Shown here piece by piece: positions 17,133 through 52,001 of a stretch of DNA of 59,887 bases. Under the pieces are notes generated by a model, which made no database searches, was not told where the DNA came from, and saw only the letters and a program-made list of their open reading frames with translations. Origin of the DNA: a virus (taxonomy: Duplodnaviria; Caudoviricetes); the IMG/VR virus record IMGVR_UViG_3300018017_000005, positions 1-59,887 of that record; one strand, 5' to 3'. Numbering within the stretch: the first letter of the stretch is position 1; each line of letters opens with the position of its first letter. The position numbers and the translations under genes were made by a program.

Positions 17133-18398
17133 TTACGGGCCCGGTACAAGAACTGTGTTACTACCATCTGCAACAAATCCAGTCATCATCGCTCCTGACA
17201 AGATTGTACCAGCACCCACTGTAGTCATAATTGGCACAGGGGTTGAAATTAGGATACTGACGGCAGAACCGACGCAGGCAACAGGAGCAGAACCACCATT
17301 AATCGCTACGGCACCGCTACCACCACCCAACTGAAGACCGCTTGCGCCGTTAATCGACACACCCTGAGCTGCATTAATTGTCAATGACTGCTTTGTTGTC
17401 AGAGTGATCCCTTGGTCAGCCGTTATCTGAAGCTTTTGCTTTATACGGATATTAACGCTTGCTTCTGAGCGAAGAAAGCCGGCTCCGGTGCTGTCGAAGA
17501 ACATCTTCAGCTTAGTCAAATTAGCAATACCATCTACAGGAGAGCCTGCTTCCGCATTAAAACCTGCGGGAGCGATTACAAACTCAGCGACGATAGGACC
17601 ATTTGTCCCAATGTTCAAGCTGGCATTTGTAGAGGCCTCTCCAGCATCTCCTGAGGGCTCGGGAACAGGTTGATGCACCTGTCCGATGGCTACTCGAAGA
17701 GTTGCTTGGTCGTCGTTGGCGAATAATCGAAAAGTTTGACGAAATTCGGTCTGAGGATTTGTATCCGTAAAACTTGTGGACAATCCCCAGTTAATAGACC
17801 CGCCGGTATTGTGGTGCTCATAGTTCTGGCTAATGTCTGTGATTATGTTGCCAAGGGGTATGTAAATACGCTGGGCTAGCTGCGTTGAGCCGACTTGAAG
17901 GACACCGCCACGGTGCATGATGACAAAGTTGCCATCGCGCCCCTGCCAGACCATATCTCCTGGCTTACCGCGAGTACGCCCACCAGCAAATACGGCTCCC
18001 TGATTCGTGCCCGTTGTATCAGCCGCTTGCTCTGCCGCGGTGCTTGTGGATGGATCTTCTGGGATCTCCATCGGCATAATAAACGCCAGCACAAAAGGCG
18101 GTGGGCCATCGCTTGGGATGCACACGAGACACTTCGCGTTAACTTCTGGTAGGCAGTACCAGCCCTCACCACGATTTGAGTGTAGGTATGGCCCTGCTAC
18201 TTGAATATTTGGATAGTATTTCTGGTCAAACTGAGAGCGCACATCGACAGTCCACGTTTGCAGATTAATGTCGATTACCCTCGCCTCATGAATGAACGCA
18301 GGACCGCCGCCATGCGGCTGCGTCCAGGACGTCCGCATACTGGTACGCTCGAGAGGCGTCGGCGTTGGCGTATGCGGATCTGTAATATAGCGAGACAT
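17133..18398 (-). CDS. Baseplate central spike (gp5/gpV/VgrG-like) with PAAR-like C-terminus
   Basis: N-terminal OB-fold motifs (ARVIDIN..TWTVDV, GWYCLPEVNAKCLV), beta-helix-like repeats (LQITADQGITLTT, INAAQGVSINGA) and C-terminal INGGSAPVACVG...ADGSNTVLV. Confidence 0.7.
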   Translation of the reverse strand: MSRYITDPHTPTPTPLERTSMRTSWTQPHGGGPAFIHEARVIDINLQTWTVDVRSQFDQKYYPNIQVAGPYLHSNRGEGWYCLPEVNAKCLVCIPSDGPPPFVLAFIMPMEIPEDPSTSTAAEQAADTTGTNQGAVFAGGRTRGKPGDMVWQGRDGNFVIMHRGGVLQVGSTQLAQRIYIPLGNIITDISQNYEHHNTGGSINWGLSTSFTDTNPQTEFRQTFRLFANDDQATLRVAIGQVHQPVPEPSGDAGEASTNASLNIGTNGPIVAEFVIAPAGFNAEAGSPVDGIANLTKLKMFFDSTGAGFLRSEASVNIRIKQKLQITADQGITLTTKQSLTINAAQGVSINGASGLQLGGGSGAVAINGGSAPVACVGSAVSILISTPVPIMTTVGAGTILSGAMMTGFVADGSNTVLVPGP

Positions 18399-21300
18399 TA
18401 GTACGCGTGAGTAGGAACGTCTTTAAGCTCAGTATGCGTAAATCGATTGGCCGATGTAAGACCAAACTGGGCTCCGTAAGCCATGCCAGGTATAGGCGAT
18501 ACGCCGTGCAAATCTGACACAGCGCCCAAAGCGGCACTGCGCATAATACCTTTTCGCAAACCCTCGGTATTCAACTGCGCCATCCAGTCTTCTTGAACCT
18601 CGTGCGGAAGAACGTCGATACCCTTCATAATAGGCGTGTGCTGAATTGGCTGAAGACCTTGTGCAACCAATTGTTTATTGGCCTCTTGAACTTTAGCACG
18701 CGAAGCGTACTGTCCCTTTACCATAGTTTCATGGTCTCCTGGGTCAATAACGCGCGTAAGGTCACTGATAGCGCGTACTACAGTCTCCGTATTTTGGCGA
18801 CGGACACCCTCCCTACCGTAAATATCGTGTAGCTCCGTAGCCAAATGCTCTTGAACCTTCGCCATGTTTCCTGTGACTTCGTACAGGTCGTGCGGATTTA
18901 CGTGCGTGCGCGACGGGTCGGTCAGCATATCCCCGGCGTTAACCTTCATACCGACCTTGATTCCAGACCAAGTGTCACCACCTGGAAGACGCGTAGCCTC
19001 AACACCAGGTAATGGCTTAAACAATGGATTGCCACGAGCATCGTTAGGCAAATGGTGCGCCACGCCACCAATCCAAGCTACGTGGCCTGTAGGATCCTCT
19101 TCAATTTTCTCAATGACCCCAGACTTACTTGCCAGTTGTGCCTGATCAGCGATTACTCGTGGCAGTTGAGTCAACTCTTGCACGCGGTCAAAGTCATTCA
19201 CCAAGCTAGAATTACGCTCAGCAAGCCCTCCTGAATGAAATTGTTTGAGCGTAAGCTGAGTAGCTCTTTCTCCTAACGCCTGCGTAGAGAGAATGCCGAC
19301 GTTGGTTCCCAAGGCGTAGTGCTGTCCATTCGATGCAAGCCCAGCACACTTCTGGCAAACGCCTGTACCATTGTCACATTTCATAGTAGATCGCACAAAC
19401 AAAGAGGCGTTTTTGTCTGCTGCTTTTATCGTTGAAGCAAGCTGTGGCGTAACAATGGTGTCTTTCTTGTAAGTCACCCCACCAATCGTGTGGTCTTGCG
19501 CAAGCGTGCGGTCGAATACATCCTGAGAATGTACAGGGATAGAAATACCGTTCTCGGTACCGCAATCATGCGCAGTTACCTGCAACCCCATGGTTGTGTT
19601 CATAAGCTGCTTGGTGAAATAACCAGGCTCTCTCACCTCTTGCACTTTGAGCACAGAACCACGACGGGCACCCGACATCGAACGCCAGTAAGAAGCAAGG
19701 TCTAACCCCTCCGTATAGCTCTTTGTAATAGGATCGGGGATGACATGGTTATTGCTGTCCACCATCAGCATAGGCGCCAAGCGCAGCTGACGATATTGAA
19801 TCGCGCTGGGCTTTACACCTGCCTGCTGCATCAACGCCAAATTATTTGGATTCTTAACGTTCTTAGCCGCGTGCTCTTTCTCCATCTTCTCTGTAGCGTC
19901 GAACCAGGCAGTCACAACGTGATGCTCCTTCTCAGCATCACTGAGGTCTGTACGCGCCTGAATCTGATCTACCTTTTTCTTAGCTTCGGCTACGATAGGA
20001 TCCCTAAGCCCTTTGTCGGGAGTAAAATCGTTAAGGCTGAATGAGTGCGTGCCCACAGCTATGTCTGTGCCGTTCAGCGCAGGATGCGTCATCGGGATTA
20101 CACCGAAAGAGGTATTGAACCCCAAGCGCATGAGCTTAGAAGCTGAATCTGCAAAATCTGGCTTATGGTCTTTAGCAAGTTTCGTGTAAAGCTTATCTAC
20201 TCCTTTTTTATCCAGTGTCATACCCAGATTATGCAGAACGTCTTGCTGCATTGGAGCCGGGACAGCGGCAGACAAAAGCACACGACCCGCTGTAGTTACT
20301 TTGTTACCTACAGTTGCCTGATCTGTAACGCTAAGATGCCCCTCTTGTACAGCTTTCAATAAATCTTCGTGCGTATCAAAGACCTTTTTGCTGTCCCCAG
20401 TAACGCGCGAAAGCTTGAACAGACCAAGATTTGATTCCAGCGTAGGCTGATAAACAACCCTACCGCTCGATTCGCTGGTGATGTTGTTTGAGGGAAGCAT
20501 GCGCTTTGCCTCTTCTACCGCATCATGTCCTATGGGCACGAATGCAGCCATCGTGTCCCAGACAACCAAACCGCCGTTTACGGCAAAAACTTTTGTCTCT
20601 GGAACAACCAAGTCGTACACGCGTTGTTTACCCAGAGACACTACAGAATCAATCAGGTCCCAATGAACGTCTGTAGCCAACACTAAGCGCCCCCACGCAT
20701 CGATACCTTCAATATTGGCGGCTTTTAGATAACCCAAGGCTTTTACAGCAGACGCTCTTGACAGGTAAGGTGCCTCTTTACGAACGGATTTAACAGTCGC
20801 TAGCTCGCTAGAAAAGGACGCGTCGGCGCCACATGGTTCCTTACTCAATGCGAGCAGCTCAAGTAATCTATGCGTGATCGGTACAATGTCTAAGTTATCC
20901 TTAAGTAACGTAGAAGGCGCCGAGATAAAGCTATTAGAATAAGGCCCTTCATGCGGAATATGACGCAAGACCGGAGAAAGACGTCCTATAGCCTGCGCTG
21001 GCGATAAATCTCGTACCTCTCCAGTCTCGTGGTCGTATACACATAGAGATTCATTCATGGAGGCTTCTACACTTAGACCCCTACGCATCGTGATGCGTGC
21101 GGTATCGCAGCCTTCTTCGATAGTAATATCTGTAGCCTTAGCCATTATACTATCTGCTGTCGCATGGTGGTAAGACCAAACCTCAATACCGGGCGGGAGC
21201 GAGTAAACAGACGCACCGTGCCTATCTACGCGACGTGTCGCTGCGAGATAAGGAATGTCCTTCAGCGCTGCATCTACCAGGTAACCCTGCGATGTCCTTG

Positions 21301-24300
21301 CAAGGATCTTCGTACTACCAGCAAATTTCATAGGTGACTCCTGAGGCCTAGCAAGCGCCTCAGGAGAGTCACGCCATAGCGCTTCAGGAATTGTCAAGGC
21401 TACTCTTGTACGACCTACAAAACAGTTACCATCAAAGTCCGCACCGAGGCCACCTGTTACTAGTGGGTGTATTCGAATTGCTTTACCTGGAGCGCGCTGC
21501 GCCCAAAATGCTTGAACACTGTGCTTATGCAGAACTGGGTCTCGCTTAAGCAAAACAGGTCGTTCCGCCATAACTCTATCCAGCGCTTTGTAAACAAGAG
21601 GATCTTTCTTACCTTGTTCAGCAAGCAAGGTATGCGCCTCTCGTGGAGTACTGGCGGCACCTAGCTCTTGAAGCTTTTGTACGACAAAAGGTCGAAACAG
21701 ATCCAACGCCTTCTTTTCTGGCAATCCGACGTAATCCAAATGAAGCCCGGCGTCTGGGGTTATTGTTCCGCGCATAGATAGGTCTTGTCGCCGGGACAAA
21801 AGAGTATCCTGGAACATACCTGTTTTAGGCGCACGGCCAGCAATCTGTAAAAGGATTCCCTTGGGATTCGTTCCGCGCTTTTCCCAGTTCTCTCCAACTC
21901 CCATAAGCGCCTTTACACTATCGTACAAAGCAGCTCTGTCTTCTTGTTTATCGTGGTCGCTCAAATACTTATAGTTGGGCCCCTGCATCTGAGATGCGAT
22001 ACCACCCGCTTGAACATAGAGCTTATTCAGATCCGCCTGCAGAATGTTGCCATTAGGCAGCACGCCAACAGGGCGCATAATAGGAGGAATAACAGGCAGA
22101 TTATTTAGGATATAAGCGTCTTTTGGATGAATTCCCGCTGTATCCAGCGCGGACAAATATCTTACGCGCTTTGACAGCGCATCGATCTTTTCTGTCCCAG
22201 TTCTATGCGCTATATTCTCTGGGATCTTGTACTTATCCAAATCCTTTTGCGCCTGAGCCAACTCTGCCTTTAGGTCAATGCGCTCCAACAAATGCGCGAT
22301 GCCAGGCCCTCCTGCTTTGGCGCCCTCAGTGCCTAAAGGTACAATCTTCCCATCCTTTACCGCGGATTTGCCCTCGATAATATCCGCATAAGCACCCTGT
22401 TTTAGCCCTAGTACCTTTTGAATAGCATCTTCAAAAATTGGGTTAGGCACAGGCTCTGGTAATTTGATGTGGGACCAATTGGTACCATTTAATCCGCCCG
22501 TAATTACAGGATCAAGCACTCCGCCTTTTCTAGGTACAGGCTCCCCGTGCCTATCCATTTTTGTGTAAAGGGCATAAGCCGGCTCAGGCAGCTCCCCCTT
22601 GCTCATGGACAACACCTGCTTATCCGTCATCGGCATGACTTGAATTTGATGCCCCTTTTTTACGACATCAATTCCGGCCGCGCGGAGCATGTCCTCGAAT
22701 TTCTGGAAGGCAAATGTCTTCTTGGGTGGTGGCGGAGTCTCTCCTGTTTGAATCGCTCGCCATACTTCGTTATGAAGACTGTCCCACTTCTCTTTACGGT
22801 CTGGACCTTCGCTCTTCCAAGTTTGGAATTCCCTTATATTATGTACCGCTCCATGTCCGAGAAGGCCGTACATGCCTAGATTACCCATGGACTGCCCACC
22901 CGTCTTACCTCCTTGAGATGGCAGCAGTGTCTCCGCGTCATAAGACTCAGGCTCTGCCCCTTCCAATGGCATACCCGACCTGGCGCTCACCTTTTTATCG
23001 ATCTGGAAATTGAGCTGAAGCATGTGCTGTTTACCTGTAAGCGCATGCCCCAAAGAGTGACCGCTAATTGGATCAATCAGCTCTTCTGTGTCCGATAATC
23101 CATGAGTAGCCAGCTCCTTTTTGACCCTATCGAGCGCATCAACACCGGGCTCAAAATTGTTAACGATGTAGGGCTTACCTGTCTTCTCAGCGATCTTAGA
23201 CGCGACAGTTTCAAGTATCTGTCCAGGATTAATACGCCCTGGGACACCGCTTGGGCTAAGGAGAGCTTCTAATGGAGTCCCGTCCACCGTATGTGGCATA
23301 TCTTTGTCTGGCAAGATACATGAAATTACGCCTTTGTTGCCCGCTCTTGCACTGAGCTTAGACCCTACCTGGAGAGGCTCTACTGTCTTTACGTGCACAG
23401 TTACATTGCCACTGCTATCTCTGCGCACACCCACTACTTCTCCTGGGTGATCACCCTTCCAAGCAAGGCTGGTGTCTAGCGTCTGGCTACCTAGGCTTTT
23501 ACGAATTTTACTAAGCGAAAAAGAGCCGTGGGATTCAAATGGCCTTGAAGCCACAACGAGCGGATCGCCAGGCTTAACTATCTGGCCTACGCGAACAATG
23601 CCCTCGTCATCCAGCCCAGCGAGCTGGCTCTTTTCATACGCAGTAGGGTGCAGTGCCTTAAACTTCGATAGGCCGGTAATTGCGTCTGGGCCCAAGGTAA
23701 CTGATGGCTTATGCATGTGCTCGCTAGCCATTTTCTGAGCCGCGGTTTCGCTAACTACAATCCCATCCTCAAAATTCAAGCCCTTGTAATTTACGTAGCC
23801 AACCCTGAGGTTCTTGCCTAGAGCCAACGTGCCATTACGCGTGAAGTTATTATCAGCCAACAGCTGCCCACTCTTTACCTCATCACCTTCTTTAACAACC
23901 GGGGTGCTGTGCAAAACAGCCTTAGCGTCATTAAGCGGGTAATTGTTATAGATGCTAACGCGCTGTTCTTTACCATCTTTTCCTGTGAGCGTAATAGCAT
24001 CAGGTGTTACTGAAGTAACCTTACCCTCAATAGGAGCGATGTGAGCCGACTGGCGTCCAATAAAATCCTCAAAGGTCCGAACACCTTCTTGGCGCCCTGT
24101 ACCTGACTGAACGAGCGGCGCATCACGGTCATGAAGACTAATAGCCTGCTCGATGTGGTGTGTGGCGTAGCTGACCCTATTCCCAGAGTTATTCCCCATA
24201 AAAGGGATGAGGTTAGTGGTGTAACTAAATAGCTGACTGGGACTACGCATTACGTAGTCGGCGTCCTCAAACTTGCCAGTACCCAGATCATTACCCTTTT

Positions 24301-27567: not shown

Positions 27568-28786
27568 GTCTCTTATGGTTGTCTGCATGTCTACACCGCT
27601 AGCCTCAGGGCCTGACGCGCCATACCAGCATGGAAATATGGGCATCAACCTGAACGCCATTGGAGGTTCAGGCGTAGGAAAAAGCGCACGCATCCGTGAA
27701 ATCGGTAAAGCGCTAGGCCTCAACGTTTACTCTATTTTCACAGCAACAAAGACACCTGAACATATTGGTGGCTTTCCAGTAATGACACCGCGCGGCTTCA
27801 CACTGGAATGTGCCATGCCCCAAATTAGGGCAGCTATTAGCGACGAGCGCGCCATCATATTTTTGGACGAGATTTCCTCTGCGCCAAGAGCTGTACAAGC
27901 AGCTATCCTTTCATTTCTTAACGAACGAACTGTGGGTGAATACACACTGCCTCCAGGTATTCGTCTGGTTCTCGCAATGAATCCGCCTGATATCGCCGCA
28001 AACGGTAGGGATCTTGAAGTACCCCTAGCCAACAGAGTGCTTCACTTCCAGTATGAGACACCAGCGCTAAACCAGTGGAAGGAGTACATGATGGGTACTT
28101 ATGACCCTGGTATTTCCAAGATACATGACAGCGACGAATTGGTACGGCTTAATTGGCGCGCGCACTATGTAAACGTTCTTGGTACAACCGAAGGCTACTT
28201 GGTAGCTGCGGGGGGCAAGTACAAAGAAAAGAACGAGGCGGGCGAAGAGGTAGAACGCTCCAAGCTCTACGATCAGCCTGAAGCAGACAGTCCGCGTGCA
28301 TCCAAGGCATGGCCATCTCATCGTACCTGGTCCTGGGCCGTAAACGGGGTCACAACCGCGCGATGCCTAGGGATGGGTATCACCGTGCAGACAGATATCG
28401 TGGAGGGCCTGGTGGGCAAAGGGTTGGCCGCAGAGTGGACGGCCTATGCTAAGAAAGTCAATCTGCCCCATCCGTTGGATGTTCTATCCGGCAAATGGCA
28501 GATCCCCAAGCAACTCGATGTAGTGCGCACCGTGTTGTCCTCTTGCGCGGTTTACGTAGCCCAAGAAAAGAATGCGGAGCTAAAAGCACAGCTCGGTACT
28601 GCGTGCTGGGCATTATTGCACACAGCTGCAACAGCTGGTTATGCTGACTTGAGTGTTAGACCAGCTGGTACCTTGCTCCACGCAGGTCTTGACCTTGCCA
28701 GCCCTGTTGAAGCTGTTCGAGACGCAGCAAGCAAAATGCTAGAGCTCCTTAACGACAAAGACCACACCAAGTACATTCCTCGATGA
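27554..28786 (+). CDS. MoxR/dynein-related AAA+ ATPase
   Basis: Walker A GGSGVGKS, Walker B IIFLDE, sensor LAMNP, Arg finger LANR, PSHRTW. Confidence 0.88.
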   Translation: MDRFESLMVVCMSTPLASGPDAPYQHGNMGINLNAIGGSGVGKSARIREIGKALGLNVYSIFTATKTPEHIGGFPVMTPRGFTLECAMPQIRAAISDERAIIFLDEISSAPRAVQAAILSFLNERTVGEYTLPPGIRLVLAMNPPDIAANGRDLEVPLANRVLHFQYETPALNQWKEYMMGTYDPGISKIHDSDELVRLNWRAHYVNVLGTTEGYLVAAGGKYKEKNEAGEEVERSKLYDQPEADSPRASKAWPSHRTWSWAVNGVTTARCLGMGITVQTDIVEGLVGKGLAAEWTAYAKKVNLPHPLDVLSGKWQIPKQLDVVRTVLSSCAVYVAQEKNAELKAQLGTACWALLHTAATAGYADLSVRPAGTLLHAGLDLASPVEAVRDAASKMLELLNDKDHTKYIPR

Positions 28787-30144
28787 TAACGCCACAAGAC
28801 GAGCAGCGCGTAAGAGAAAAGCTATCTCTCGGACGTGCTTATGTACTATCTAGAGCGGATTACTACAGTAGTATTCTACTAGAAATGTCTGTCGAGGTTG
28901 TTAGCAATGCCACCGTAACTATGGGAGTTACCAAAGGATTGGTGCTGTACGTTAACGGTGAATGGCTGCTTAACGACCCTGAGATGCAAACCGATGAAGT
29001 AATAGGTGGCTGCCTTGTCCATGAATGCGAGCATCCATTACGTGGGCTAGATCGTCTGGAGGCACTACCCGATAAAGCTCTAGCTAACATTGCTGGGGAC
29101 GAAGCCATTAACCTCAATCTGCGCGAAGAGCAATGGCAATTACCTTCTTGGGTTGTTTATCCTGAACGATATGGGCATCCCCCAAATTTAACTCTTGAGC
29201 AGTACTACGCGTTGTTGAGCGACCAGTTGCTGCAAGAAAATAAAACGCTAGAGCAGCTAATGGCCGACGCCCCTCAAGGCGGAGGTGGAACAAAGGGCAA
29301 CGGGAAGAACCAAAATAAAGGTAGCGGTCTAGGCAATAAGCAACAAAAACAATGGACGCCTAAAATAGGCGCAGGTGGATGTGGTTCTGCTGGCGGATAC
29401 GCCGTAGACGAAAGTCTTGAAGCAGAGCTTGACACCGCCTATGGCAAAGGCCCTAGTGAGGTAGAAAGCGCGCGTAGACAAACCTTTGATGCAATTGAAA
29501 AAGCGCTAGAATCTGGAAAAGGCTGCGGAAACATACCTGGGCGCTTCAAAGAGCTTCTCAAAATTAGGTACCAAGTGCCAGACGTCAACTGGCGCTCTTT
29601 TCTACGCCGCATTCTTCAGCGCGCATTAGAACGCACAATTGGAGACAGCGATTACTCTCTAAGCAACCCTAGCTTAGGAGGTCAATTAGCTGGCTGTATA
29701 ACTTCGGGCCTAGTCGACCAGAAAATCAACGTAGTTATCGCTGAAGACACATCTGGATCGATGGGTGAGCCACAGTTACTTAACGCGCGCAGCGAGGCAT
29801 ATCACCTGATACGCGCCGTAGGTATCGATGAGGCCATCCACATCCAATCCGACATGGTAGTGCAACACGAGAAGCGCATAAGACTGCGTGACCTACCTAA
29901 GTTAGCCTACCATGGACGCGGCGGCACCGACTTTAACGCTGTTTTTGAACGCGTTAATAAGCGGTATCCAGAAACCAATTTGCTAGTTTATTTCACGGAT
30001 GGCGATGGGCGCGCGCCAGCTAAACCGCCACGGAACTTCGATGTAGTTTGGTGCATTATTCGAACAGAGCACGCCAGACGTCCCGCTCACTGGGGACATG
30101 TTGTTGTATGCGATAAAAATCAAAAGCTGGAGGAACCTTACTAA
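28783..30144 (+). CDS. vWA-like protein with N-terminal HExxH metallopeptidase (DUF2201-type)
   Basis: HECEH, NIAGD..IN, MIDAS DTSGSM, GRGGTDF and YFTDG motifs; adjacent to the MoxR ATPase. Confidence 0.88.
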   Translation: MITPQDEQRVREKLSLGRAYVLSRADYYSSILLEMSVEVVSNATVTMGVTKGLVLYVNGEWLLNDPEMQTDEVIGGCLVHECEHPLRGLDRLEALPDKALANIAGDEAINLNLREEQWQLPSWVVYPERYGHPPNLTLEQYYALLSDQLLQENKTLEQLMADAPQGGGGTKGNGKNQNKGSGLGNKQQKQWTPKIGAGGCGSAGGYAVDESLEAELDTAYGKGPSEVESARRQTFDAIEKALESGKGCGNIPGRFKELLKIRYQVPDVNWRSFLRRILQRALERTIGDSDYSLSNPSLGGQLAGCITSGLVDQKINVVIAEDTSGSMGEPQLLNARSEAYHLIRAVGIDEAIHIQSDMVVQHEKRIRLRDLPKLAYHGRGGTDFNAVFERVNKRYPETNLLVYFTDGDGRAPAKPPRNFDVVWCIIRTEHARRPAHWGHVVVCDKNQKLEEPY

Positions 30145-48833: not shown

Positions 48834-51800
48834 ATGTGGAACATCAATGCGCCCACAGCGCAGTATCTAGGGCATACCTACCCGACGCTTCCGACACGTC
48901 CAGTAACCAGTCCCTTCGAGATTCAACGCGTAATTAACGAGGTTTACAACTCGCCGTTCGTGGCAATCGATACAGAGACCACAGGGCTTGTGCAATGGCA
49001 AGATGTGCCGCTTTACTGGTCTCTTGCTTGGGGTAACCAACGAGCTACGTTACACGCGGATTTACTACCATACTTCGACGTTTGCTTTAACAACCCAAAC
49101 ATCACTTGGGTGCTAGCAAACGCCAAATACGACATGCACATCTTGGCCAATTACGGACATATCCTCGTAGGTATGTGGCGGGATGTCCAAGTTATGCACG
49201 GCCTTCTATTCGATCACCTCCCGCACAGGCTGAAGTTCATCGCGCAGCAACTACTCAATTGGACGTGGGGTGACTTCCAGGACCAATTTGGAAAGATCAC
49301 TAAGAAACAAACCCCAAGGCAATTGATAGAAAAAGCCGAACAAGAAAACTTCGGTCTGTTGGTCGAATACGCAGCGAACGACGCTTGGGGGACGCTGAAG
49401 GTCTACGAGGCTTTGGAAGCGATGCTCAGGCACGAAGCTACCTTCTCCTTGTTCCGCAAACACCCACCGTACATTGATACATTGTGGGACTATTTCACAA
49501 AGGTAGAATCACCGTTTACTCGCTCACTGTGGAAGATGGAACGTAGGGGTGTAAAGATCGACCGTGCCCGCTTTGCTGCTGCAAAGCCAGAAGCGGAGAA
49601 AAAGCTCGATCAAATATCCCGAGATATGACTCGCTTAGCAGGATTTCCCTTGAACCCCAATTCCCCTGCGCAAGTCGCCAAGTACATGGATTCACAGGGG
49701 TACAAGCCCATTAAATGGACTAAAGGGGGTAAATACGGGGTAAGAAAACCCTCATGGGACGCCGACGTGCTGGAGCACTACGACGAAGACCCCGTTGTCG
49801 AGCTTATTCTTGAGCAACACGCCTATTCTAAGCTTTACGGAACCTATATCGTCGGCTTGGACGAGATGGTTGACCCATTCGATAGGATTCACTCTAGCTT
49901 TAATCAAACACCGCGTACTGGTCGCATATCCAGCAGTACGCCCAACCTGCAAAATTTACCTCGAGCGGAAAATGACCACTGGAATTTAAGAAGCGCATTC
50001 ATCGCAGAACCTGGATGTAAAATCATTGATTTCGATTTTAACCAGTTAGAGATGCGCCTTCTTGCCGCCGGAGCCGAAGAGCAAACTATGGTGGATATCT
50101 TCTTGCGCGGTTGGGATATCCATGCGGGCAACGCAGCTATGATGTTCAACGGAAACTATGAGGACATCAACGCGGCGAAAGACTTACTCAAGAAAATAGA
50201 CAAACTGAAGCTATCACCTGCCGATACGCTAACCGAGTGCGAGTCCGAAAGCCCTGGTATAAGCACCAGAGCTACAGCTGCAGGTAAGTCTTTACTAGGA
50301 TATTTGCACCAATGTGCAGAGGATAGAACTGGGGCAAAGAGTGTCGGCTTCGGGCTAAATTACGGTCTTGGACCAAAGAAACTAGCCAGGCAAATAAAGA
50401 CATCTCAAGCGGATGCCGTGCAGAAGATCGCACTGTACAAAGGCACATACCCAGCCGTAGAAGCCTTCATGAAAGAATCCGTAGAAGAAGGCCGCAGAAC
50501 AGGATTTGCTTTTACTGTAATGGGTAGACGCCGTAATATCCCGATGATTGCTTCTACGATTAAAGGGGAGCAGGCGTTAGGAGAAAGACTTGCCACGAAT
50601 ACCAGGATACAAGGATGCCTACCCGCACATGTGCGAATTTTAACGAAAGATGGATACCTACCAATTAAACAAGCGCCTGAGCTAGGCATCGCGTGGACAG
50701 GTACAGACTTCGCTCCTTACAGGAAGTTGGATAGAGGACCGTCAGAGCTGGCAGAACTGCACCTCAGTAATGGTCAAACACTTGATTGTGACGTACGGCA
50801 TAAGGTGCTTACTGTTGGCACACAGGCTTATGAATTTAAGCATTTTGACGATCTTCGAGAAGGGGATCAAATCTGTACAAGCCTAGCGCGCCCTCTGGAA
50901 TTCGGAAGTAACAATGTGCATGCGGTTCACATGTATTGGATGGGCTTTATGCTGGGTAATGCCTATACAAGCAAGGGCCCAGACCACAGAAATGCGCTAT
51001 CTGTAACCTTTGGCGACAGGTGCAACCGGTACGAGAAAGAAGTACGCGCTAAAGAGTATGTCAATTATATTAATCAAGCATTTGGAATAGCTACCCAAAA
51101 ACCTCGTGTACAAGAAGGCAAAATAACCATCGTTGTAGAAAGCGCTGGTGTGCGCCAATTCTACGAATCGCTAGGATACCCATGGGGCAAAACGGCCGAA
51201 GTTAAGACAGCACCTACAACGGTATGGACCGCGTGTCTAGAAGGAAGAAAATCCTTCTTATTGGGTATGCTAGACGCGGATGGACATTTGCACGCGACCA
51301 GCCCCAACATTCATTTATGTCAACGCCCGTTACTTCACGAGCTGCTTATTCTATTTCGCACTTGCGGTATAGAAGGAACACTACGCGACTTAGCCGATGG
51401 CTCCTACAGGCTTGATCTAGTGGGTAGCCAATGCGCTAGACACCTCAGCTACGGTAGCATACGCCGTAATACTATTCCTATGCCGGCGCCTAAGTGTGTC
51501 TATAAACGCTTTTTAACAGATGCCCCAGGCACAACGCTATCCCATACTGTTCTTCGCTCTAGGGTCCGTAGGGGCGGACACATTGGTGTCTACACGATAG
51601 CCGCCATGTACGAAAATAGCGGGTTACTCTTACCCACACTTTATGCGTCGCGCGCATTGGTACGAAAGGAACGGCTAGGAAAGGTAGATACTACATACAC
51701 CCTTTCAGTACAAGATCCAGGGCACCGTTTTGATTCTGAGGGAGTTATCAGTCAAAACAGTGCAGCAGAAGTAACTAAGATGGCGCAGCTGGCTATCGAC

Positions 51801-52001
51801 ACCGTAGGCTTGGATACACTGTTTAACTGCCACATCGAGCTACAAGTACATGACGAGCTGGTTTTTGAATGCCCCGAAGAGAACGTAGCTAGGGTTATGC
51901 CAGAAATCAAAGAATTGATGGAACATCCGTTCTCCATCGATCTTATCTGCCCACTGAAGGTAGAAGGTGGCTTTGCGAATAGCTGGGGAGAGGCAAAATG
52001 A
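48834..52001 (+). CDS. polA: Family A DNA polymerase with 3'-5' exonuclease and an intein
   Basis: Exonuclease DTET/NAKYD/YAAND; TGRISSSTPNLQNLP; motif A DFNQLEMR; motif B R..AKSVGFGLNYG; motif C VHDEL. Confidence 0.95.
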   Translation: MWNINAPTAQYLGHTYPTLPTRPVTSPFEIQRVINEVYNSPFVAIDTETTGLVQWQDVPLYWSLAWGNQRATLHADLLPYFDVCFNNPNITWVLANAKYDMHILANYGHILVGMWRDVQVMHGLLFDHLPHRLKFIAQQLLNWTWGDFQDQFGKITKKQTPRQLIEKAEQENFGLLVEYAANDAWGTLKVYEALEAMLRHEATFSLFRKHPPYIDTLWDYFTKVESPFTRSLWKMERRGVKIDRARFAAAKPEAEKKLDQISRDMTRLAGFPLNPNSPAQVAKYMDSQGYKPIKWTKGGKYGVRKPSWDADVLEHYDEDPVVELILEQHAYSKLYGTYIVGLDEMVDPFDRIHSSFNQTPRTGRISSSTPNLQNLPRAENDHWNLRSAFIAEPGCKIIDFDFNQLEMRLLAAGAEEQTMVDIFLRGWDIHAGNAAMMFNGNYEDINAAKDLLKKIDKLKLSPADTLTECESESPGISTRATAAGKSLLGYLHQCAEDRTGAKSVGFGLNYGLGPKKLARQIKTSQADAVQKIALYKGTYPAVEAFMKESVEEGRRTGFAFTVMGRRRNIPMIASTIKGEQALGERLATNTRIQGCLPAHVRILTKDGYLPIKQAPELGIAWTGTDFAPYRKLDRGPSELAELHLSNGQTLDCDVRHKVLTVGTQAYEFKHFDDLREGDQICTSLARPLEFGSNNVHAVHMYWMGFMLGNAYTSKGPDHRNALSVTFGDRCNRYEKEVRAKEYVNYINQAFGIATQKPRVQEGKITIVVESAGVRQFYESLGYPWGKTAEVKTAPTTVWTACLEGRKSFLLGMLDADGHLHATSPNIHLCQRPLLHELLILFRTCGIEGTLRDLADGSYRLDLVGSQCARHLSYGSIRRNTIPMPAPKCVYKRFLTDAPGTTLSHTVLRSRVRRGGHIGVYTIAAMYENSGLLLPTLYASRALVRKERLGKVDTTYTLSVQDPGHRFDSEGVISQNSAAEVTKMAQLAIDTVGLDTLFNCHIELQVHDELVFECPEENVARVMPEIKELMEHPFSIDLICPLKVEGGFANSWGEAK
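50616..51758 (+). mobile_element. Intein (381 aa) with LAGLIDADG endonuclease in PolA
   Basis: IQG|CLPAHVRILT...GVISQN|SAA; removal restores NTRIQGSAAE. LAGLIDADG blocks WMGFMLGNA and LLGMLDADG. Confidence 0.92.

Follow-up and report, generated by a model that had tools for sequence, protein, structure and literature searches.

We examined a 59,887-base viral sequence (Caudoviricetes; IMG/VR record IMGVR_UViG_3300018017_000005, estimated completeness 32%), referred to below at its full length as the window, and focused on its gene for RNA polymerase (RNAP), whose catalytic loop is interrupted by an intein-like insert. Besides the RNAP, the window encodes a terminase, a family A DNA polymerase and helicases, and many metagenome studies of peat and wetland have recovered DNA nearly identical to it. 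The open reading frame (ORF) carrying the insert is 2429 amino acids (aa) long and matched the Pfam families RNA_pol_Rpb2_6 (E 2e-53), Rpb1_5, Rpb1_2, Rpb2_3 and Rpb1_1. With Rpb2 and Rpb1 domains in one frame it is, judged by these matches, a fused beta-beta' RNAP, and it is the sole RNAP match within the fragment. Fused polymerases of this family measure ~2150 aa and are carried on contigs of 100-270 kb. No close cultured relative was found in a phage collection, where the best tblastn identities were 30-43% over the loop-proximal 122 residues only.

At the catalytic loop, the ORF reads GADFDG-N|CFVG, runs on for 290 aa, and resumes as LVVW-D|TMAAF, with Thr1712-Met-Ala-Ala-Phe-Val-Pro downstream (Table 1). 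We know of no multisubunit RNAP that does without a Mg-binding Asp at the third position of this loop. The residues and codons are exactly those described in an earlier note on this DNA, which was made from the sequence letters and had called for a check of the raw sequence at the Asn codon. That codon, AAC, differs from the Asp codon GAC by one transition and could in principle reflect an error in sequencing or assembly, a mutation private to this DNA or recoding of the RNA, such as A-to-I editing, but we found no evidence in favor of any of these and give them almost no weight. Three independent DNA metagenome runs (X2, X3 and X4) yielded contigs that cover both junction codons without a difference and uphold AAC; over 1401 compared bases, the sole mismatch was A>C at 21152 in X2, and no indels or joints were seen across the junction region. 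Moreover, Asn is encoded by all 132 members of the intein clade described below, which together with the three runs rules out the assembly error, private mutation or decayed allele that the note had held possible. As for editing, the Asn codon at 10 IMG/VR intein loci was AAC in six and AAT in four, and the Gly codon before it also varied (GGC, GGA or GGT); an editing enzyme would thus meet no constant nucleotide context. A contig from an RNA library likewise showed no joint, though it spans only 20738-20976 inside the insert, bridges no junction and does not prove transcription.

Table 1. Features of the window, with positions counted from its first base
Feature	Positions	Strand	Basis or remark
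Predicted fused beta-beta' RNAP gene, intein host, 2429 aa	18398..25687	minus	ORF and Pfam Rpb2/Rpb1 domains
Catalytic loop D-F-D-G-N, residues 1417-1421	21425..21439	minus	Third metal-ligand position is Asn, not Asp
D1417-F-D-G	21428-21439	minus	Codons read
N1421 (AAC)	21425-21427	minus	Codon read
C1422 (TGT)	21422-21424	minus	Codon read
Predicted mini-intein, 290 aa, Cys1 to Asp290, no homing endonuclease	20555..21424	minus	AlphaFold2 and Foldseek
N-terminal splicing region, intein residues 1-165, including Cys1 (21422-21424) and E103 (21116-21118)	20930..21424	minus	phmmer stretches 1-160 in relatives
Block B, S122-M-N124-E125-S126, Glu at the canonical His B:10 position	21047..21061	minus	Clade conservation; S-x-x-E spacing like T-x-x-H
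Helical linker, intein residues 166-250, remnant after loss of the LAGLIDADG core	20675..20929	minus	AlphaFold2 helices; gap in the alignment with relatives that carry the endonuclease
C-terminal splicing region, blocks F and G: W255, D271 (F:4), K278, G285, W289, D290	20555..20674	minus	Conservation; alignments with Ssp DnaB and P0075
K278, at the His F:13 position	20591-20593	minus	Opposite His of the Ssp DnaB intein
W1710 (TGG)	20558-20560	minus	Codon read
D1711 (GAC)	20555-20557	minus	Codon read
T1712 (ACG), Thr+1, presumed C-extein nucleophile	20552-20554	minus	Thr/Ser conserved after the insert
Second intein, 381 aa, in the family A DNA polymerase gene (48834-52001)	50616-51758	plus	...NTRIQG|CLPAHV...VISQN|SAAEV
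453-aa protein, DUF2201_N (putative metallopeptidase) and VWA-like DUF2201	28783-30144	plus	Pfam

To identify the insert, we built an AlphaFold2 model from a 51-row alignment (pLDDT 85, pTM 0.83) and compared it with the PDB. All 33 Foldseek matches at E<=0.001 were intein or intein homing-endonuclease structures, led by the TFIIB Mvu mini-intein (5o9i, E 1e-7). Going by the modelled fold, the insert is a genuine HINT-fold mini-intein without an endonuclease, in agreement with the note's proposal of an intein-like domain in the DFDGD loop. The standard models gave little: Pfam Intein_splicing (PF14890) scored 23 bits, below its cut-off of 35.8, NCBIfam returned just a weak match to a DnaB-with-intein model, and a Pfam scan of the insert gave no match to a LAGLIDADG or HNH endonuclease domain. 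Relatives of the intein carry the endonuclease family PF14528, and an alignment with five IMG/VR relatives (A2) indicated that ~205 aa of the LAGLIDADG core are deleted in the window's copy, which therefore cannot home by itself. Of the class 1 signatures, Cys1 at position 1 and Thr1712 at +1 are present, whereas block B reads S122-M-N-E125 in place of T-x-x-H and the C-terminal His-Asn is Trp-Asp. E125 and W289 thus stand where the earlier note had remarked on a replaced block B His and penultimate His. In block F, position F:4 is D271, aligned with the VFD of the Ssp DnaB intein, and F:13 is Lys278, not His.

Comparison with uninterrupted alleles indicated that the insertion is in frame. A strict motif search recovered 53 intein-free homologues that read DFDGD-[T/A/S]M without interruption, and subtracting 290 aa from the window's RNAP leaves 2139 aa, against ~2150 aa in the intein-free relatives. 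The third loop position is Asp in all 53, followed by Thr (43), Ala (8) or Ser (2). We found no intein-free RNAP with Asn: the back-translated pattern DFDGNTM matched 5 stretches of IMG/VR and ADFDGNT matched 43, none of them in an RNAP. The pattern DFDGDTM, in comparison, matched at least 118 stretches, and 87 of the 118 listed show an RNAP continuation. Three matches with a loose RNAP context (L138, L142, L147) and one edge match (L160) proved not to be RNAP when read by eye or translated.

Many of the ADFDGNT matches are accounted for by a recurrent phage protein that contains ...MPPANQASVGNDALIRNVG..TFTVADFDGNTIV... and is unrelated to RNAP (L128-L131, L136, L137, L143-L146, L149, L151, L153, L155, L157, L161, L162, L164). 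Among cultured phages, no carrier of this intein was found: when 50,697 phage records were searched by tblastn with the loop and intein together, 33 of them matched, in the N-extein part alone and never in the intein, and a megablast search of the RNAP gene against the phage collection returned nothing. The sole match extending past the loop, in Vibrio phage 1.031.O, is intein-free and reads NADHDGDTMAVH.

To define the family of the intein, we combined a word-indexed search with the loop region, which listed 120 homologues, with a phmmer search in which the intein by itself was run exhaustively against 1.84 billion representative proteins. The latter returned 222 homologues at E<=1e-3, far above chance expectation, and the best 150 of these entered the census. 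Overall, 195 proteins matched the intein and 167 contained both junctions; 12 of the 167 were removed because the N-junction pattern had caught the LDGDG motif of the endonuclease, leaving 155, or 156 with the window. The N-terminal junction was N|C in 132 of the 156, D|S in 17, D|C in 3, D|T in 3 and D|K in 1. At the other end, where 190 C-terminal junctions could be read, the last residue was Asp in 187 and the next residue Thr or Ser in 189, and the beta' sequence continued after every one of them. The most abundant endings were YD|T (83) and WD|T (82), followed by FD|T (9), WD|S (4) and YD|S (4), with nine others occurring once each; an aromatic residue thus stands before the terminal Asp in almost every family member. 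These comparisons indicate that the insert is part of a large intein family whose target is the DFDGD loop in the beta' modules of phage RNAPs.

We next placed these sequences in a FastTree phylogeny from which the junction residues had been left out, an approximate, unrooted tree. In it, the 132 N|C sequences occupy one side of a single branch, corresponding to one change, with an SH-like support of 100; we refer to them as the N clade and to the 24 remaining sequences, all with Asp at position -1, as the D clade. The median terminal branch of the tree is 0.71 substitutions per site. On this evidence, Asn(-1) has been kept without exception through very deep divergence, even though one transition would restore Asp. 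The earlier note had suggested examining whether N(-1) and the W-D ending are conserved together; N(-1) and an aromatic-Asp ending are, in 132 of 132 members of the N clade. Its picture of a single reciprocal Asp/Asn swap is not supported: the terminal Asp is also found in the sister clade, which keeps Asp(-1). Since the terminal Asp is common to both clades and Asn(-1) is confined to one, the two substitutions were separate events.

The DFDGD|T site is a hot spot for inteins, with at least two further types inserted there, all keeping Asp(-1). One is canonical, D|S...HN|T (P0075, P0079, P0108). The other (P0067, P0081, P0093) reads D|Q, D|A or D|D ... SN|T, has no position-1 nucleophile and may be class-3-like. 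An additional intein at the site, in P0064, ends ...RN|T. Many fused beta-beta' homologues exceed the ~2150-aa intein-free form by 400-1500 aa and contain extra LAGLIDADG/Hom_end matches, so several inteins per RNAP gene appear to be common in this phage group; examples are P0009 (3367 aa), P0021 (3696 aa) and P0029 (3060 aa), the last with a LAGLIDADG/Hom_end match at residues 624-689, in the beta part.

The canonical intein P0075 also helped to fix the splice register. Its C-terminal end, ...EQHVFAIFGGVIVHN|TMSAYVP, aligns without gaps to that of the window, ...ETKVFAVNGGLVVWD|TMAAFVP, so that K278, W289 and D290 fall on His F:13, His G:6 and Asn G:7, respectively. Position 1 is Cys, Ser or Thr in 155 of the 156 census members (23 of 24 in the D clade), and Ala is found at +1 in only 1 of 190 intein-bearing alleles, against 8 of the 53 intein-free ones, where it comes directly after the loop (Fisher p 2.5e-5). 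From the gapless F and G blocks and the nucleophiles conserved at 1 and +1, comparison shows the predicted junctions to be the canonical N|C1 and D290|T+1. Ligation across them is therefore predicted to give DFDGN-TM as the primary product, as the earlier note had stated for canonical splicing. That note had also raised excision one residue upstream, in which, through a shifted register or a new ligation chemistry, a piece running from N-C to W would be cut out at Gly|Asn and Trp|Asp and DFDG-D-TM would form directly. This register would deliver the correct DFDGD product in both clades, would explain why Asp before Thr is nearly invariant at the C-terminal junctions, and would leave the extein codons uninterrupted at the DNA level. 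Nevertheless, we consider it improbable: Asp at +1 is unprecedented as a splicing nucleophile, Trp, Tyr and Phe are unable to cyclise, the conserved nucleophiles sit exactly at the canonical positions, and the match to a His-Asn intein sets D290 at the terminal-Asn position.

The substitution at position -1 is one of several that distinguish the two clades (Table 2). Both share S122, S126, W255, D271 (156/156), G285, D290 and Thr or Ser at +1. In the N clade, however, all three canonical catalytic His residues are replaced, B:10 by Glu, F:13 by Lys and G:6 by Trp or Tyr, whereas the sister D clade retains His B:10. Having changed together with E103, N124, E125 and K278, N(-1) is shown by this comparison to belong, in its putative function, to the intein.

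Table 2. Residues that differ between the two clades, in intein numbering
Position	N clade (n=132)	D clade (n=24)
-1	N 132/132	D 24/24
1	C 132/132	S 17, C 3, T 3, K 1
103	E or D 131/132	H 24/24
124	N 132/132	D 19/24
125 (block B His position)	E 121/132	H 24/24
278 (block F His position)	K 122/132	W or L

The loss of three canonical His residues and of the terminal Asn, a Pfam intein score below threshold and the missing endonuclease could also be read as signs of a domain that no longer splices, either a dead allele or a polymerase working with the domain in place. We regard this as very unlikely. The 2429-aa frame is intact, all RNAP domains are there, and no other RNAP match exists in the fragment. 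A domain of 290-500 aa within the Mg-binding loop would, in addition, be sterically implausible. Furthermore, N(-1), C1, N124, D271, D290 and Thr or Ser at +1 are near-invariant across 132 members separated by long terminal branches, a pattern that indicates purifying selection on the presumed splicing residues. The earlier note's further idea, a self-processing switch that would gate activation of the RNAP, is neither supported nor contradicted by these comparisons.

The intein has apparently also been mobile. The window's exteins (+-400 aa) are closest to nine intein-free homologues of ~2150 aa, at 66-72% identity, compared with 60% for P0029, a D-clade host. The nearest relative of the intein itself, P0003, shares 54% identity in the intein and only 51% in the exteins. 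Since the closest intein sits in distant exteins while the nearest exteins are intein-free, the intein and its Asn have, by this comparison, passed from one RNAP lineage to another, in lineages where the remaining alleles have Asp. With at least 132 sequence clusters, the N clade is a successful, mobile group of inteins.

In the simplest reading of canonical junctions, the mature RNAP would keep DFDGN, the carbonyl oxygen of the Asn would still ligate Mg-A, perhaps with altered metal dependence, and N(-1) would be just a structural partner of Glu125 in the intein. Indeed, the change from D(-1), D124, H103 and H125 to N(-1), N124, E103 and E125 resembles hydrogen-bond dyads of inverted polarity, for which no extra chemistry is needed, and our literature searches found no deamidating step in any intein. 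We take this tolerance of Asn to be the main competing explanation, a serious but minority possibility. Published passages on the NADFDGD motif describe its Asp triad as universally conserved and all three Asp as coordinating Mg-A (PMC13198411), and the third position is Asp in all 53 intein-free relatives and throughout the D clade, with no RNAP among the IMG/VR matches to the Asn patterns. In addition, an intein that moves among lineages whose nearest relatives have DFDGD cannot count on RNAPs pre-adapted to Asn.

Taken together, the universal Asp ligands, the invariant Asp of the D clade, the absence of intein-free Asn alleles and hosts that are not pre-adapted favor conversion of Asn(-1) to Asp during or after splicing, to which, from these comparisons, we assign a somewhat better than even chance. 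The host genes are long, intact and conserved, and must therefore yield working enzymes. In the full account that we favor, and which we hold to be about evenly balanced between right and wrong, Cys1 of a mini-intein with canonical junctions would form a thioester at Asn(-1), the acyl group would pass to Thr+1, the terminal Asp would cyclise and release the intein, and an O-to-N shift would yield DFDGN-TM as the primary product. The Asn would then become Asp during or soon after splicing, restoring DFDGD, a conversion that the Cys/Glu/Glu/Lys set of the intein might carry out itself or that might take place in the metal site of the RNAP.

A more specific and decidedly tentative form of this account is that the N-clade intein carries the third Asp masked as Asn and unmasks it itself, the Cys1 thiol together with Glu103, Glu125 and Lys278 hydrolysing the Asn(-1) amide. 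The freed Cys1 would act after the N-extein has been handed to Thr+1; alternatively, a succinimide at Asn(-1)-Cys1 could activate the scissile bond in place of His B:10. Cys1, Glu103, Glu125 and Lys278 are of the same residue types as the Cys-Glu-Glu-Lys set of nitrilase-superfamily amidases. An Asp beside a thioester would promote premature cleavage, and self-unmasking might, speculatively, explain why Asn(-1) is paired with Cys1 and Asp(-1) with Ser1.

Several points weigh against conversion. The N clade has a single origin, which makes the co-variation of N(-1) with E125 and the other residues one evolutionary event, an independent pair to which no significance test can be applied. The contact of N(-1) with E125, E103 and K278 is supposed from their homology to His B:10 and His F:13, and the replacement of Asp and His by Asn and Glu could be pure structural compensation, with the Asn left in the product. 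Spontaneous deamidation of Asn-Thr is slow. Splicing and the identity of the junction residues are themselves predictions from sequence comparison, with splicing supported indirectly by the purifying selection on junction residues. Finally, the rarity of precise intein loss could equally explain why intein-free Asn alleles are absent.

Either outcome would be of consequence. Inteins are assumed to leave the sequence of the host protein unchanged. If splicing is coupled to Asn-to-Asp conversion, this would be a new protein chemistry and a possible masking and unmasking step for protein engineering; if the intein unmasks the residue itself and delivers DFDGD-TM, it would be the first known to chemically edit an extein residue. 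If, on the other hand, the RNAP works with an Asp-Asp-Asn triad, a textbook rule would have to be revised. In any case, the N clade always encodes Asn where multisubunit RNAPs need a Mg-binding Asp and does so without the residue regarded as most conserved in inteins, and a large group of phage inteins escapes the standard intein models.

Elsewhere in the window, the family A DNA polymerase gene contains a second intein, inserted in the polymerase motif, with Cys1, a terminal Asn, Gln instead of His at the penultimate position, Ser at +1 and a LAGLIDADG-like motif (LLGMLDADGHL); the Pfam DNA_pol_A match in this gene is split into 3 stretches. This intein keeps the canonical terminal Asn, which the RNAP intein of the same genome does not. 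Next to the RNAP gene, whose stop overlaps its start by one base, lies a downstream 421-aa ORF (17133-18398) with no Pfam match.

Our literature searches, with supplementary files outside their scope, found no published description of the RNAP intein family or of the Asn(-1) rule, and the intein passages of two jumbo-phage papers deal with PolB and GyrA inteins. As far as these searches show, the combined loss of all three His residues and presence of Asn(-1) is without precedent. Individual elements do have counterparts among known inteins. According to Mills, Johnson & Perler (2014), cyclisation is also possible where Asp or Gln substitutes for the terminal Asn, and class 1 inteins with C-terminal Asp or Gln had been described by Amitai, Dassa & Pietrokovski (2004, cited there), so the terminal Asp of the RNAP intein needs no new chemistry. 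These inteins resemble ours in their HINT fold, position-1 nucleophile, Thr, Ser or Cys at +1 and cyclisable last residue. The RNAP family differs from them in that the Asp is fixed family-wide and preceded by an aromatic residue, and the N clade differs further in having also lost His B:10 and His F:13 and in replacing an essential extein Asp with Asn(-1).

His B:10 is regarded as the most conserved intein residue, and the same 2014 review states that only two inteins were known without it, of which it names Tko CDC21-1 as the one then known to be functional. Tko CDC21-1 is described as relying on a Lys outside the conserved blocks, whereas the N clade has Glu at B:10 itself (121/132), and a single intein there contrasts with a whole clade here, with E/D103, N124, K278 and Asn(-1). 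Among solved structures, the closest by sequence is the Ssp DnaB mini-intein (1mi8; block F, E 0.007, profile A2) and the closest by fold is the TFIIB Mvu mini-intein named above (target TM-score 0.82); both have canonical catalytic residues and are 9-13% identical in sequence to the window's intein. The nearest comparison at the same site is with the canonical Ser1...His-Asn inteins P0075, P0079 and P0108, which a phmmer search with the window's intein did not recover. They share the DFDGD|T insertion point, Thr+1 and gapless F and G blocks but, unlike the window's intein, retain Asp(-1), His F:13, His G:6 and Asn G:7. Lastly, class 3 inteins, such as that in DnaB of mycobacteriophage Bethlehem, are likewise a phage-borne mechanistic variant of splicing, characterized by the lack of a position-1 nucleophile and the use of a block F Cys. 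The RNAP intein is ruled out as a member of this class by its Cys1, found in 132/132 of the N clade, and by Asp271 at block F position 4.

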